Shown: positions 4,278 through 23,570 of the stretch, one piece after another
How positions within the stretch are numbered: the stretch's first letter is position 1
Layout: the number at the start of each line of letters is the position of its first letter
Assembly: GCA_012813795.1 (NCBI GenBank)
Contig: GCA_012813795.1_4087.1
DNA: 64,000 nucleotides
Strand: one strand, 5' to 3'
Origin: a phage
Notes under the pieces: model-generated
Database searches by the model: none
What the model saw: only the letters and a program-made list of their open reading frames with translations
Told to the model about the DNA's origin: nothing
Translations under genes and position numbers: made by a program

Positions 4278-4502
4278 TTAGATTTCCTCTTCACTGCATT
4301 CGGTGATTACTTTTTTAACCTCTATAACTCTTACTAAATGATACCCGCACCTATGGTTGAAATTAAACATGTTTACTAATGCATCAGCTTCTGTTTTTGC
4401 CCTAAATTGGAGATTATATATGTGCATAGTTTCATCGAGTGAGGCTTCACCTTTGCTATTGAAAACAATTTTACAAACTTCAAACCTTACTCGATAAATC
4501 AT
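4278..4502 (-). CDS. hypothetical protein (74 aa)
   Basis: ORF track; 4-nt overlap upstream. Confidence 0.45.
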   Translation of the reverse strand: MIYRVRFEVCKIVFNSKGEASLDETMHIYNLQFRAKTEADALVNMFNFNHRCGYHLVRVIEVKKVITECSEEEI

Positions 4503-4708
4503 TGAGTTTGTCCTACAATAAATTTCGCTTTAATATCACTTTTGTAACACCACATTTGTTCTTCACTAACTGTCATCCAAGAATTTTTGTTTACTTGTTC
4601 GTATGTACTATCACGTACAGAAAAACATTGGTTTAATGAATTCATAGGGGTAATTTGTACACCGGATTGCATTGAAAGAGCAACAATTAAAAAGATTGTA
4701 GTATTCAT
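4499..4708 (-). CDS. small secreted/membrane protein (69 aa)
   Basis: N-terminal hydrophobic signal-like segment; first gene after promoter 4773..4801. Confidence 0.45.
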   Translation of the reverse strand: MNTTIFLIVALSMQSGVQITPMNSLNQCFSVRDSTYEQVNKNSWMTVSEEQMWCYKSDIKAKFIVGQTQ

Positions 4709-4772
4709 TGAATGTTCCTTAATAGTTAGTCATCCATCTCTTCGAGATGTCTGTTCGCTTCTAATACTACGT

Positions 4773-4801
4773 ATTCTACGCGAATGATTAATAACTGTCA
4801 A
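4773..4801 (-). promoter_or_regulatory. sigma-70-type promoter
   Basis: TTGACA-N17-TAGAAT on minus strand. Confidence 0.6.
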
Positions 4802-4804
4802 GGA

Positions 4805-5324
4805 CTTTTAATATTGACGGGATTTGAGGAAGGGATTTTTCTTCCCCCCGCTGGGAGGGGAATTTGACGCTGATGGTATCAGAGCTATTGCATTGAAGAT
4901 TACTCTTAATGAGTACGAAAGCGGGTCATCCTGTTTCTCTCTACTTCAGTTTCATATGACGGTCTACACTTTTAAACATAGTGTATCTTCATTAAGTATC
5001 TATGCAATCAAATACTTAATGTGAGTACTCAAATTTTGGACGCAACTTTCCTGTACAAAATTTGATAACTCTCCCTTAGATAATTCGTAAGGTGTTATCC
5101 TTATATGTCTATCTAGGAACCACCAGCCATCCTAACGTGGTTCTTTATAGTGCCGCATTGCCGTGAGGGGTTCATAATATGCCCACATCTGACGGGTTTC
5201 TTCTGCACTTCGCACTGCTGGACTGCTCAACTGCCCTCTACATTTTCGAGTGGATCAGGTTCATGTCATCCATGCCAACAGAATTGTACAATATCATTGT
5301 ATCATGAACATCCATTTTGTCCCA
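4805..5324. ncRNA. ORF-free, hairpin-rich island; candidate large structured RNA (strand unresolved)
   Basis: No ORF longer than 66 codons and none with an SD; several 5-9-bp nested stems; locally GC-richer; only one AGTACT. Confidence 0.3.
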
Positions 5325-5358
5325 TAAAAAAAGGGCTGACCTAAGTCAACCCTTTTTC
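5325..5358. terminator. bidirectional rho-independent terminator
   Basis: A7-AGGGCTGAC-CTAA-GTCAACCCT-T5 directly after the sigma gene stop. Confidence 0.75.
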
Positions 5359-5359
5359 T

Positions 5360-6322
5360 TTAGAAATCTTCGTATTCGTACCCTTTTTCAAGTACTATTT
5401 TTTTAAGCTTTTGAATAGCTTCACTATATTTTCGGTGCACAGATGAACGGGACTTAACAATGTTTCCTTTATCATCAACATATCCATTATCAGAAATTTC
5501 ACGAAGGGTTTCTGCTTTGTAATCCCCAAGACCATGAACACGCATGATAATTTCTCGTTCTTTAGTACTCAATTCGTCAATGATTTCTGTGATTGCATAA
5601 CGTAATGGATTACAAATGCTATCAACATTAAGGTTATAATCACGAGCAGATGAACTCAGAATATCCCCAAGGGTTCCGTCTGAATCTGAACCCAGTTGTG
5701 CATCAAGAGTCGTATATGCATTCTGGTATAACAAACAGTTCTTAACGTGCTGAAGCTCGATACCAGTACTCTCAGAGATTAATTCTGGTGTTGGTCGCTT
5801 ACCGTGTTCACGTTGATATGATTCATTAAATCGACGTACTTGGATGTTATGAACGCTCATATAACGTGGTAAGTACACCATGTAATTTGCATCTGAACTT
5901 TCATTATACATAGTCATATAAACGGACGTTGTTGCATATGTAATGAATTTGACATTCTTACTAAGATCAAAGGTTTTAAGTGCTCGCATAAAACCTTCTA
6001 CGCCATATGCAATTTTATCTTCAAACGGAATATAACATGTACACTTTGAAGCAACGTCAACAATCATACCATAGTTGTAACGAAGTAATAGGTCAGTATT
6101 CTTTTTTACATTAATCCCAGCACGAATCTCTTCTATGATAGATTCATTAGTTACACCTGCTGGACGTTTAATACTGATATTACTTTTACTACGAACTTTA
6201 TGTGGAATATCATCTTCAATAACTTCTGATGGTTCAATTGCTTCCAATGGATTGACTTCTTCATTCGCAAAACATTCATCCAGTACTTCTTCGGAAATTG
6301 CGTTTAAGTCTAGTTTCTTCAC
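5360..6322 (-). CDS. sigma-70 family RNA polymerase sigma factor (320 aa)
   Basis: Collinear with sigma-70 regions 2-4: FITYATTSVYM..., GKRPTPELISESTGIE, LGSDSDGTLGDIL, STKEREIIMRVHGL, C-terminal HTH. Confidence 0.85.
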   Translation of the reverse strand: MKKLDLNAISEEVLDECFANEEVNPLEAIEPSEVIEDDIPHKVRSKSNISIKRPAGVTNESIIEEIRAGINVKKNTDLLLRYNYGMIVDVASKCTCYIPFEDKIAYGVEGFMRALKTFDLSKNVKFITYATTSVYMTMYNESSDANYMVYLPRYMSVHNIQVRRFNESYQREHGKRPTPELISESTGIELQHVKNCLLYQNAYTTLDAQLGSDSDGTLGDILSSSARDYNLNVDSICNPLRYAITEIIDELSTKEREIIMRVHGLGDYKAETLREISDNGYVDDKGNIVKSRSSVHRKYSEAIQKLKKIVLEKGYEYEDF

Positions 6323-18696: not shown

Positions 18697-19465
<769 letters not shown>

Positions 19466-19468
19466 ACA

Positions 19469-19601
<133 letters not shown>

Positions 19602-19602
19602 A

Positions 19603-19702
<100 letters not shown>

Positions 19703-19746
19703 ATAGGCACATACGGGTCTGCTTTTAAGCTACTGATTCGGGAATC

Positions 19747-19792
<46 letters not shown>

Positions 19793-19799
19793 CGTTCTT

Positions 19800-20437: not shown

Positions 20438-22078
<1,641 letters not shown>

Positions 22079-22531: not shown

Positions 22532-23385
<854 letters not shown>

Positions 23386-23386
23386 C

Positions 23387-23570
<184 letters not shown>

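Follow-up and report, generated by a model that had tools for sequence, protein, structure and literature searches.

A large, highly structured non-coding RNA gene of Rak2-like jumbo phages that also occurs in bacterial defence islands

An ORF-free island is the gene for a structured RNA

The 64,000-nt stretch of phage DNA analyzed here (contig GCA_012813795.1_4087.1 of GenBank assembly GCA_012813795.1; hereafter the window) is, in reverse orientation, 99.9% identical to the record of Escherichia phage A4 (Asteriusvirus), a T4-related jumbo phage with a 355-kb genome that belongs to the Rak2-like group. Between an open reading frame (ORF) at 4499..4708 and a sigma-70-family gene at 5360..6322, both on the minus strand, lies an island (4805-5324) that an initial annotation of the window, made without database searches, had described as ORF-free, GC-elevated and rich in hairpins. 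The comparison with diverged homologues shows that this island encodes a highly structured non-coding RNA, ~0.5 kb long. The same comparison shows the RNA to be a previously undescribed family, of which Rak2-like jumbo phages carry 4-5 diverged copies, co-oriented and at syntenic sites. The conserved feature, as shown by the aligned copies, is the fold: compensatory changes maintain the helices, and the strands that join them are invariant. Fold, strand and promoter are well supported by computation. For the function, the "replication site" option of the initial annotation is the preferred reading, with a probability of about 40%. Literature searches turned up genome papers on these phages, none with a description of the RNA element.

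The composition of the island was as first described. No ORF of more than 66 codons occurs between the 4499..4708 ORF and the sigma gene, and the frames of 64-66 codons seen in the window are not conserved in homologues. In 36 homologues the longest stop-free stretch is 50-117 aa, short and not conserved, and gap-run lengths are spread over the three remainders modulo 3 (95, 530 and 336), so that indels are not multiples of three. On these comparative measures, the locus is not protein-coding. Its GC content is 0.41, against 0.345 for the whole window, which places it at the 99.4th percentile of 520-bp windows. The island is not the only long ORF-free stretch, as had been claimed, because two tRNA regions equal or exceed it in length: 22534-23570, which holds a tRNA-Ser (23171-23260), and 19115-19799, which holds a tRNA-Thr (19131-19204), each with several hundred further bases.

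Copies of the element were gathered by pattern scans and nhmmer; phage and IMG/VR records supplied ~40 of them and metagenomes another 27. They were reduced to a non-redundant set of 36 with less than 95% mutual identity; in a first set of 21 copies, pairwise identity was 56-95%. The structure tested on these 36 copies, aligned as minus strands, was a filtered consensus with 16 helices and 80 pairs. Canonical cells reached 97.5% (81.7% in shuffles), 47 of the 80 pairs showed changes on both sides, and the covariation score was 0.447 against 0.163 in shuffled alignments, with none of 500 shuffles matching any of five measures. When the partners were slid by 1-3 columns, pairing fell to 36-45% and the covariation score to 0.05-0.10. 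The alignments consist of long invariant blocks between variable hairpins with co-changing arms (for example, GAACCAC/GTGGTTC versus GAAGTAC/GTACTTC), and optional hairpin modules occur at fixed insertion points across the copies.

The four stems named in the initial annotation are all present, and they correspond to helices of the fold that covariation in the relatives supports. GAACCAC at 5117 with GTGGTTC at 5137 is helix H6; ATTAAGTAT at 4991 with TACTTAAT at 5013 is H10; GATAAC at 5064 and GTTATC at 5094 enclose CCTTA at 5074 and TAAGG at 5088, which form H8; and TTCCCC at 4842 with GGGGAA at 4857 is H16. A phased triple ACTGC repeat was also found as described, at 5214, 5222 and 5230, but its units are simply strands of H1 and H4. 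The single AGTACT of the island lies at 5024, and the proposed borders are both in place, with the bidirectional terminator of the sigma gene (5325-5356) on one side and a minus-strand sigma-70 promoter (TTGACA-17-TAGAAT, 4801..4773) on the other.

Of the checks that had been proposed for a large structured RNA, the alignment of homologues was the most informative, since base-pair covariation is strong across the 36 copies. Folding energy of the single sequence only modestly beats shuffles (z = -2.18 for the minus strand, -2.35 for the plus strand) and is weak as stand-alone evidence, also when judged by the refuting condition that the initial annotation had set; the case for structure therefore rests on the relatives. 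The Rfam covariance models matched no family at the RNA locus. The idea of a large structured RNA thus stood, whereas its suggested setting near tRNA genes and its membership in one of the Rfam families named did not.

Transcribed strand, promoter and ends

The assignment of the RNA to the minus strand, the direction of the flanking genes and of almost every gene near the locus, is well supported by a promoter, P1, and by the comparison of the folds of the two strands. The minus-strand fold contains 64 pairs (-56.6 kcal/mol) with ~135 Watson-Crick/wobble interchanges, whereas the plus-strand fold obtained by the same method contains 48 pairs (-37.7 kcal/mol) with ~38 such interchanges. On the minus strand, H10 is extended by conserved U-G/G-U pairs and H16 is a clean CCCC/GGGG helix; on the plus strand these become C-A mismatches. 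A plus-strand assignment, drawn from G-U versus A-C counts and a plus-strand RNAalifold prediction, was rejected because the excess was driven by invariant pairs without covariation support. A strand-symmetric count limited to Watson-Crick-only helices was undecided (55 G-U versus 71 A-C on the plus strand), and single-sequence folding energies are equal for the two strands, so that the strand assignment rests on P1 and on the comparison of the folds.

The promoter scan placed the extended -10 element of P1, TGATACAAT (TG-A-TACAAT; consensus TGnTATAAT), at 5296..5304 (minus strand); in the alignment of minus strands this element stands at the head, as TGTGGTATAAT. An upstream element, TGGGACA (5318..5324, minus strand), stands at a fixed distance from the -10 in most copies, bacterial islands included. 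In the window, 16 nt separate TGGGACA (5324..5318) from TG-A-TACAAT, which puts the probable start at ~5289. Across copies the upstream element reads TGGGACA, TGAGACA, TGGAACA or TGAAACG. P1 precedes most copies on the minus strand, the window copy included; of the four RNA copies in A4, three have the P1 pattern and the 65-kb copy has no clear P1. In six copies of another type, a terminator-like hairpin lies between P1 and the RNA body.

In phage CBB, a "divergent RpoD-like promoter" (-35 TGAAACG, -10 TATA) is found mostly upstream of DNA-synthesis genes, and it also occurs in GAP32 (PMC5259590). Comparison with that work identifies the P1 motif as this promoter. In A4, 18 P1-type motifs lie on the gene-sense strand and two on the other. 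Among the loci with such a motif in front are the genes for the late sigma factor, SSB, primase and ligase, as well as the DNA polymerase region. Further P1-type promoters (TG[AG][AG]ACA, ~16 nt, TGnTA[TC]AAT) were seen in the window on the minus strand at ~59924, 59445 and 27589. Outside the window, a 2-kb stretch of A4 without annotated genes (L005 4139-6138) has a P1-type promoter at 4715, and by its sequence this stretch could be another non-coding transcript.

The body of the RNA is estimated at ~485 nt (4805..5289, minus strand), with both ends inferred and the conserved sequence reaching 4814. The conserved 3' end, CAAAUCYCGUCAR, is followed by 20-60 bp of AT-rich DNA (an AT-rich stretch is present at this place in all copies), then by a hairpin and by the next promoter. 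Since most copies have no canonical intrinsic terminator closing the RNA, this 3' end is tentative. Many copies do contain an internal hairpin with a run of six to seven U just 5' of the 3' domain. The next promoter in the window is P2, the sigma-70 promoter for the downstream ORFs (TTGACA-17-TAGAAT, 4773..4801, minus strand; 11 of 12 matches in the promoter scan), which sits directly 3' of the RNA gene; other copies have equivalent promoters. A small hairpin, CAUCUCGAAGAGAUG (4737..4751, minus strand), lies in the leader of the 4499..4708 ORF, and related CGAAG-loop hairpins occur between the RNA and the next promoter in other copies. Such hairpins were also considered as a general genomic signal, an idea dropped with two in the window. 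Flank and alignment comparisons gave no conserved plus-strand promoter for an antisense RNA, the window containing one weak match (9 of 12, 5263-5292).

Anatomy of the RNA

All elements below are on the minus strand unless stated otherwise. The upstream border is the bidirectional hairpin terminator of the sigma-70-family gene, read from the sequence at 5325..5356, and the weak Rfam matches to terminator-type small RNAs are confined to it. The 5' domain is closed by H1 (5275-5281 with 5215-5221; span 5215..5281), in which 6 of 7 pairs change on both sides, and it holds a conserved nine-base hairpin loop, GAAAAUGUA. H4 (5205-5209 with 5149-5153) and H5 (5189-5195 with 5161-5165) occupy 5149..5209, a region with the invariant joining strands AGAAGAAAC and CAAUGCG; H4 is 100% paired, with both-sided changes in four of its five pairs. 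In hairpin H6 (5117..5143) all five pairs change on both sides, and pairing is 99.4%.

The central core (5073..5116) is near-invariant in the 36 copies and comprises CCUAGAUAGACAUAUAAGG (H7), then ACCUUA with UAAGGG (H8). It reads CCUAGAUAGACAUAUAAGG...ACCUUACC...UAAGGGAG, for which two alternative pairings are possible, and the UAAGGGAG stretch resembles a Shine-Dalgarno sequence. Because the core pairs barely vary, covariation neither supports nor opposes H7 and H8. A long-range pairing of the H7 loop (GAC) with the 3' tail (GUC) is possible from the sequence.

Hairpin H10 (ATTAAGTAT...TACTTAAT, 4990..5021) shows changes on both sides in 10 of 12 pairs, and many of its minus-strand pairs are G-U, equivalent to A-C mismatches on the plus strand. 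Helices H11, H13, H14 and H15 (4894..4987) are arranged around the invariant strands GACCGUUG and AACCCGCUU; H13, H14 and H15 are 100% paired, with both-sided changes in 4 of 5 pairs of H13 and 3 of 3 of H15. The 3' domain (4814..4870) consists of a CGUCA motif, hairpin H16 and the conserved tail CAAAUCCCGUCAA, with an invariant G-run and tail. H16 is formed by CCCC, a four-base UNCG-type loop and GGGGGG, and the only variation in its pairs is C-G versus U-G. A module, UUUUGUAC-loop-GUCCAAAA, occurs singly or, in some copies, twice.

The CGUCA motif occurs four times within 380 bp, as TGACG at 4815, 4865, 4957 and 5190 on the plus strand, the densest cluster of this word in the window. Two of the four are invariant across the RNA family, and judged by sequence the cluster could be a protein-binding motif. 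The variable hairpins of the family often contain GTAC, which occurs 417 times in the window; AGTACT occurs 146 times in the window against ~21 expected from base composition.

Copies and conservation in phage genomes

Matching phage records number 71-73; a search with the core only found 265 places in 71 of them, or 4-5 places per genome. Core identity is ~93% within Asteriusvirus and ~70% in phages of Serratia, Erwinia, Pectobacterium, Cronobacter, Yersinia, Salmonella, Klebsiella and Xanthomonas, in which the flanking DNA can no longer be aligned. Almost all of these loci are unannotated; in one record, an automatic "repeat_region" covers part of the element.

The A4 genome contains four diverged copies, at 65.2, 125.8, 205.6 and 320.9 kb, the last being the window copy. 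The survey covered the genome except for 246-262 kb, and four is also the BLAST place count for the record. All four are on one strand, each inside an intergenic gap of 650-900 bp, and they are spaced 60-115 kb apart. In six further genomes from IMG/VR, all copies within each genome are likewise co-oriented. The full-length copy in Klebsiella phage RaK2 is far more diverged; it is syntenic with the A4 65-kb copy and has Dam methylase and cytidylyltransferase genes downstream. Self-comparison of the window gave no paralogue within it.

The surroundings of the copies differ. Three of the four A4 copies, and two or three of the bacterial island contexts presented below, are followed by long same-direction gene arrays. 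A copy type adjacent to the endonuclease VII gene is kept across genera and has convergent genes downstream, with a strong bidirectional terminator within ~200 nt in several relatives, e.g. GAP32; by virtue of these convergent genes and terminators, this type cannot lead downstream genes. Among the proteins encoded beside phage copies, the sigma factor and a DUF were the only informative Pfam families. Phage TH47 (L296 1013-1657) has an inserted ORF of 214 aa that separates the sigma gene from an intact RNA gene, and by eye the motifs of this ORF resemble those of a free-standing homing endonuclease.

Several searches of other collections were negative or uninformative. A plasmid collection had no match to the RNA, and a third pattern used on IMG/VR was too loose, its matches being mostly chance. 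A scan of bacterial genomes with the pattern CTTATANNTCTATCNAGGAA gave 29 matches, all chance by nhmmer; this pattern misses the E. coli island copy described below, so that the scan says little about bacteria.

Bacterial islands carrying the RNA

The RNA was found in 2 of 5,426 complete E. coli genomes. Strain LR-29-1 (NZ_AP027515.1; L297 8951-9547) has a full-length copy (nhmmer 398 bits, E = 2e-121) with a P1-type promoter, TGGGATG...TGTGATATAAT, and the nearest phage copy is only 80.6% identical. The island in which it lies adjoins ffs and contains a resolvase, a tyrosine integrase gene interrupted by IS3, and two candidate defence systems, PDC-M45 and PDC-S16. Its sole protein with a relative in the phage sequences compared is a DUF4326 protein.

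Two metagenome contigs (L198 7920-8594 and L176 7160-7740) also have full-length copies with a P1-type promoter and show no tblastx similarity to A4. A large serine recombinase and a Lamassu system flank one of these copies; the other is bordered by the chromosomal tilS and cytochrome c genes and, at its opposite side, by ParB-like genes with a serine recombinase. The genes downstream of the L176 copy are convergent. The three copies from LR-29-1, L198 and L176 keep 71-73 of ~77 scorable pairs, and in the two from metagenomes 13-16 pairs differ from the commonest pair on both sides.

Downstream of the RNA, the E. coli island and one metagenome island encode homologous proteins (E = 1.7e-12). 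This protein is the marker of a widespread island family that occurs in Klebsiella, Raoultella, Yersinia, Citrobacter, Enterobacter, Cronobacter, Pantoea and Pectobacterium, several of which are host genera of known Rak2-like phages. The layout of these islands is a recombinase, a ~480-500-aa protein (phrog_2467), a long non-coding leader, the marker protein (~256-346 aa), a ~120-aa protein, cargo and a resolvase; the cargo is variable and often consists of defence genes. In this family (L298 5310-5640 and 7200-8000; L305, L306, L307), the leader is conserved, non-coding and ~550-970 nt long, and precedes the gene for the ~256-346-aa protein. A ~95-nt hairpin element, CGAATTAACTACC...GTAGTTAAT, occurs twice. 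In Klebsiella islands, all that is left of the RNA gene is a promoter with the 3' domain fused to it. Pfam, NCBIfam and PHROGs gave no informative family for the core island proteins.

Islands with the RNA encode an integrase or serine recombinase and carry defence cargo, but lack transfer genes. In these features they resemble phage satellites such as phage-inducible chromosomal islands (PICI), P4 and the jumbo-phage satellites of Pseudomonas, which are integrase-bearing islands with defence cargo and without transfer genes that are transduced by a jumbo phage (PMC12595487). Those Pseudomonas elements are a different island family with a different gene set, and the paper mentions no shared RNA; by their gene content, the islands presented here could be satellites.

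Comparison with known RNAs and origins

At gathering thresholds, Rfam 15 found only five tRNAs in the whole window, at 19-23 kb. At E <= 10, the 4500-5600 region gave only weak matches, on the terminator, and at E <= 1 nothing was found inside the element in ten diverse copies. The RNA falls below the Rfam 15 membership thresholds of ROOL, GOLLD, group I and II introns, tmRNA, RNase P, 6S and HEARO. A likeness to group I/II introns noticed by eye (words like P7 of the td intron and a hairpin like domain V) was set aside, as no model supports it. With ROOL and GOLLD the RNA shares a length above 400 nt, many helices, strong covariation, a non-coding nature and carriage by phages. It differs from them in matching none of their Rfam models, in having 4-5 diverged paralogues and a dedicated phage promoter, and in lying 14 kb from tRNA genes, near which ROOL and GOLLD are usually found.

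Two parallels concern replication. T4 is the model relative: its origins oriF and oriG combine a middle-mode promoter with an R-loop transcript, and each genome has several origins. Like oriF (uvsY) and oriG (gene 34), the RNA loci combine a putative phage middle-type promoter, a transcript proposed as primer, several sites and a T4-like replisome; P1 is of the type found upstream of replication genes and may be a middle-mode promoter. DNA bearing T4 origins is amplified and packaged, and a parallel is proposed for the islands that carry the RNA. The T4 origins, however, consist of a promoter and a ~50-bp AT-rich unwinding element and are not known to have a conserved RNA fold, whereas the RNA element has an elevated GC content, spans 480 nt and keeps both sequence and structure across genera. 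No AT-rich unwinding element directly follows P1 (GC 0.41), the AT-rich stretch lying only past the RNA 3' end.

ColE1 RNA II is a folded pre-primer of ~550 nt. Like it, the phage RNA is predicted to be a promoter-driven, multi-helix transcript, both being ~500-550 nt long with a fold that matters and a G-run element. RNA II ends where DNA synthesis starts, and a counterpart is proposed for the phage RNA. The two have no sequence relationship, and the phage RNA has no conserved antisense gene of the RNA I type; RNA II is plasmid-borne, whereas the RNA element is phage-borne with 4-5 copies per genome. A third parallel is with the cis-acting antiterminator RNAs, the put RNAs of HK022 and EAR, which are likewise folded RNAs right after a promoter, in multiple copies at operon heads. 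These are 65-120 nt long, against ~480 nt here, and one conserved copy type of the RNA has no downstream operon.

A proposed role in replication and its rivals

The RNA may be an origin-associated pre-primer or licensing RNA that acts at the start of phage DNA replication, a reading to which a probability of about 0.4 is given. In this model, P1 would fire together with the replication genes, the transcript would fold, and its conserved 3' domain (the G-run hairpin plus CAAAUCUCGUCAG) would meet the AT-rich DNA that follows. There, the 3' domain would prime DNA synthesis or recruit the T4-type replisome. Four or five such sites, oriented like most transcription, would serve the 355-kb genome. 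An island with one copy could be amplified by an infecting phage and then possibly packaged, in the manner of plasmids with a T4 origin, which according to Kreuzer and Alberts are reportedly amplified and transduced on infection. An origin role would account for the promoter type, the copy number, the 60-115 kb spacing and the common orientation, as well as for the copy type without a downstream operon and the AT-rich DNA after the 3' domain. It would also account for the survival of the promoter and 3' domain in Klebsiella islands, and for the benefit that an island could draw from a single copy.

Several observations weigh against an origin role. The element is GC-elevated and hence not an AT-rich unwinding element, and T4 origins are not known to have a conserved fold. 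Apart from the G6 run, the 3' region of the RNA is C-rich, which disfavours an R-loop. GC skew over the A4 genome tracks gene orientation and has no signal at the four copies. Most members of the island family are without the RNA, so that islands do not need it to persist. A literature search found no transcriptome of a Rak2-like phage and no transcript, origin-mapping or R-loop data for these phages. Finally, 16 helices and long stretches of invariant unpaired sequence would be more usual in a ribozyme or an RNA-protein complex than in a primer.

This last point leads to the strongest rival, which is nearly as likely: a structured RNA that acts in trans, as a protein scaffold or partner, a ribozyme, or a sponge or decoy. 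Viewed on its own it is a serious but somewhat doubtful explanation, and a variant included in it would make the island copies decoys or competitors against the phage, or antitoxin-like RNAs that the phage mimics. The ornate architecture is best explained in this way, together with the long invariant unpaired strands, the four CGUCA motifs and the optional hairpin modules at fixed sites, as found in other large RNAs. Its own promoter, and the convergent genes and (in several relatives) terminator within ~200 nt beyond the endonuclease VII-adjacent copy, indicate that the RNA stands alone, and defence systems (PDC-M45, PDC-S16 and Lamassu) abound in the islands with the RNA. Yet 4-5 paralogues of ~60% identity, syntenic in several genera, would be unexpected for one redundant RNA; no candidate partner gene is consistently adjacent in the phages, and most copies are without a canonical intrinsic terminator after the conserved 3' end.

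The same downstream genes bear on a cis-acting leader, in which the folded transcript would modify its own RNA polymerase for processive antitermination, as HK022 put or EAR does, or would stabilize middle-phase operon transcripts. The RNA is directly downstream of a promoter, several copies at operon heads resemble putL and putR, the internal hairpin and U-run of many copies could be an attenuator, and same-direction arrays follow three of the four A4 copies and two or three island copies. A cis-acting antiterminator should, however, always have an operon in its own direction downstream, and the endonuclease VII-adjacent and L176 copies have convergent genes there, with a terminator in several relatives of the former. 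With a separate promoter, P2, between the RNA and the downstream genes, a size 5-7 times that of known antiterminator RNAs and no matching Rfam family, a leader is improbable. An element that works as DNA, with the promoter incidental, is more improbable again; it would be a replication or packaging site that binds protein and has iteron-like TGACG repeats, or else a structure formed by single-stranded DNA. Four TGACG within 380 bp on one strand, the densest in the window, would suit such a site, as would the co-orientation of all copies in a genome, the lack of a clear G-U excess in the Watson-Crick-only test and the equal single-sequence folding energies of the two strands. Binding to double-stranded DNA would nevertheless leave nested, long-range compensatory helices over 480 nt unexplained, the promoter is conserved as part of most copies, bacterial islands included, and wobble-preserving changes are far more numerous in the minus-strand fold than in the plus-strand fold.

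A decayed or non-autonomous mobile insert (an intron remnant, a miniature inverted-repeat transposable element or an IS200/IS605-type element), which the initial annotation had also offered, is rejected as very improbable, on account of the synteny of the copies across phage genera, their conservation above that of the flanks and the purifying selection on the structure. The element is multi-copy and present in unrelated bacterial islands, and homing-endonuclease genes lie near A4 copies, with a putative one inserted beside the element in TH47. The copies nevertheless occupy syntenic intergenic sites, all those examined interrupt no gene, self-comparison of the window found no terminal inverted repeats but only the terminator hairpin, and no group I/II intron model matched at E <= 10.

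Other observations in the window and in A4

ARAGORN predicts a tRNA-Ser with the unusual anticodon ACT at 20972-21063 of the window (Rfam tRNA, 49.9 bits). In A4, outside the window, the large terminase (L010 34273-36584) is annotated as two ORFs ~275 bp apart, and from the sequence this split could be an intron or a frameshift.

Significance

Large RNAs with this degree of structure are rare, and most of those known are ribozymes, parts of RNA-protein machines or unexpected assemblies. The family described here has at least 16 helices, long invariant strands and excellent covariation, and yet no database entry. It is carried, unannotated or under spurious "hypothetical proteins", by dozens of therapeutic-candidate coliphages and by Klebsiella and Salmonella phages, and the practical consequence for annotation is that ORF calls across the RNA loci should stop. 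The RNA is the first candidate for a cis-acting or RNA-level function in Rak2-like jumbo phages, and its presence in defence islands is a concrete link between jumbo phages and possible satellites or decoys. A bolder and rather unlikely extension of the origin reading is a new kind of replication origin, with an ornate pre-primer RNA of ~0.5 kb at 4-5 sites that is also the sole cis "ticket" by which these phages would amplify and carry the islands. If this were true, enterobacterial defence islands would be minimal satellites, needing just a recombinase and a copy of the helper's origin RNA.

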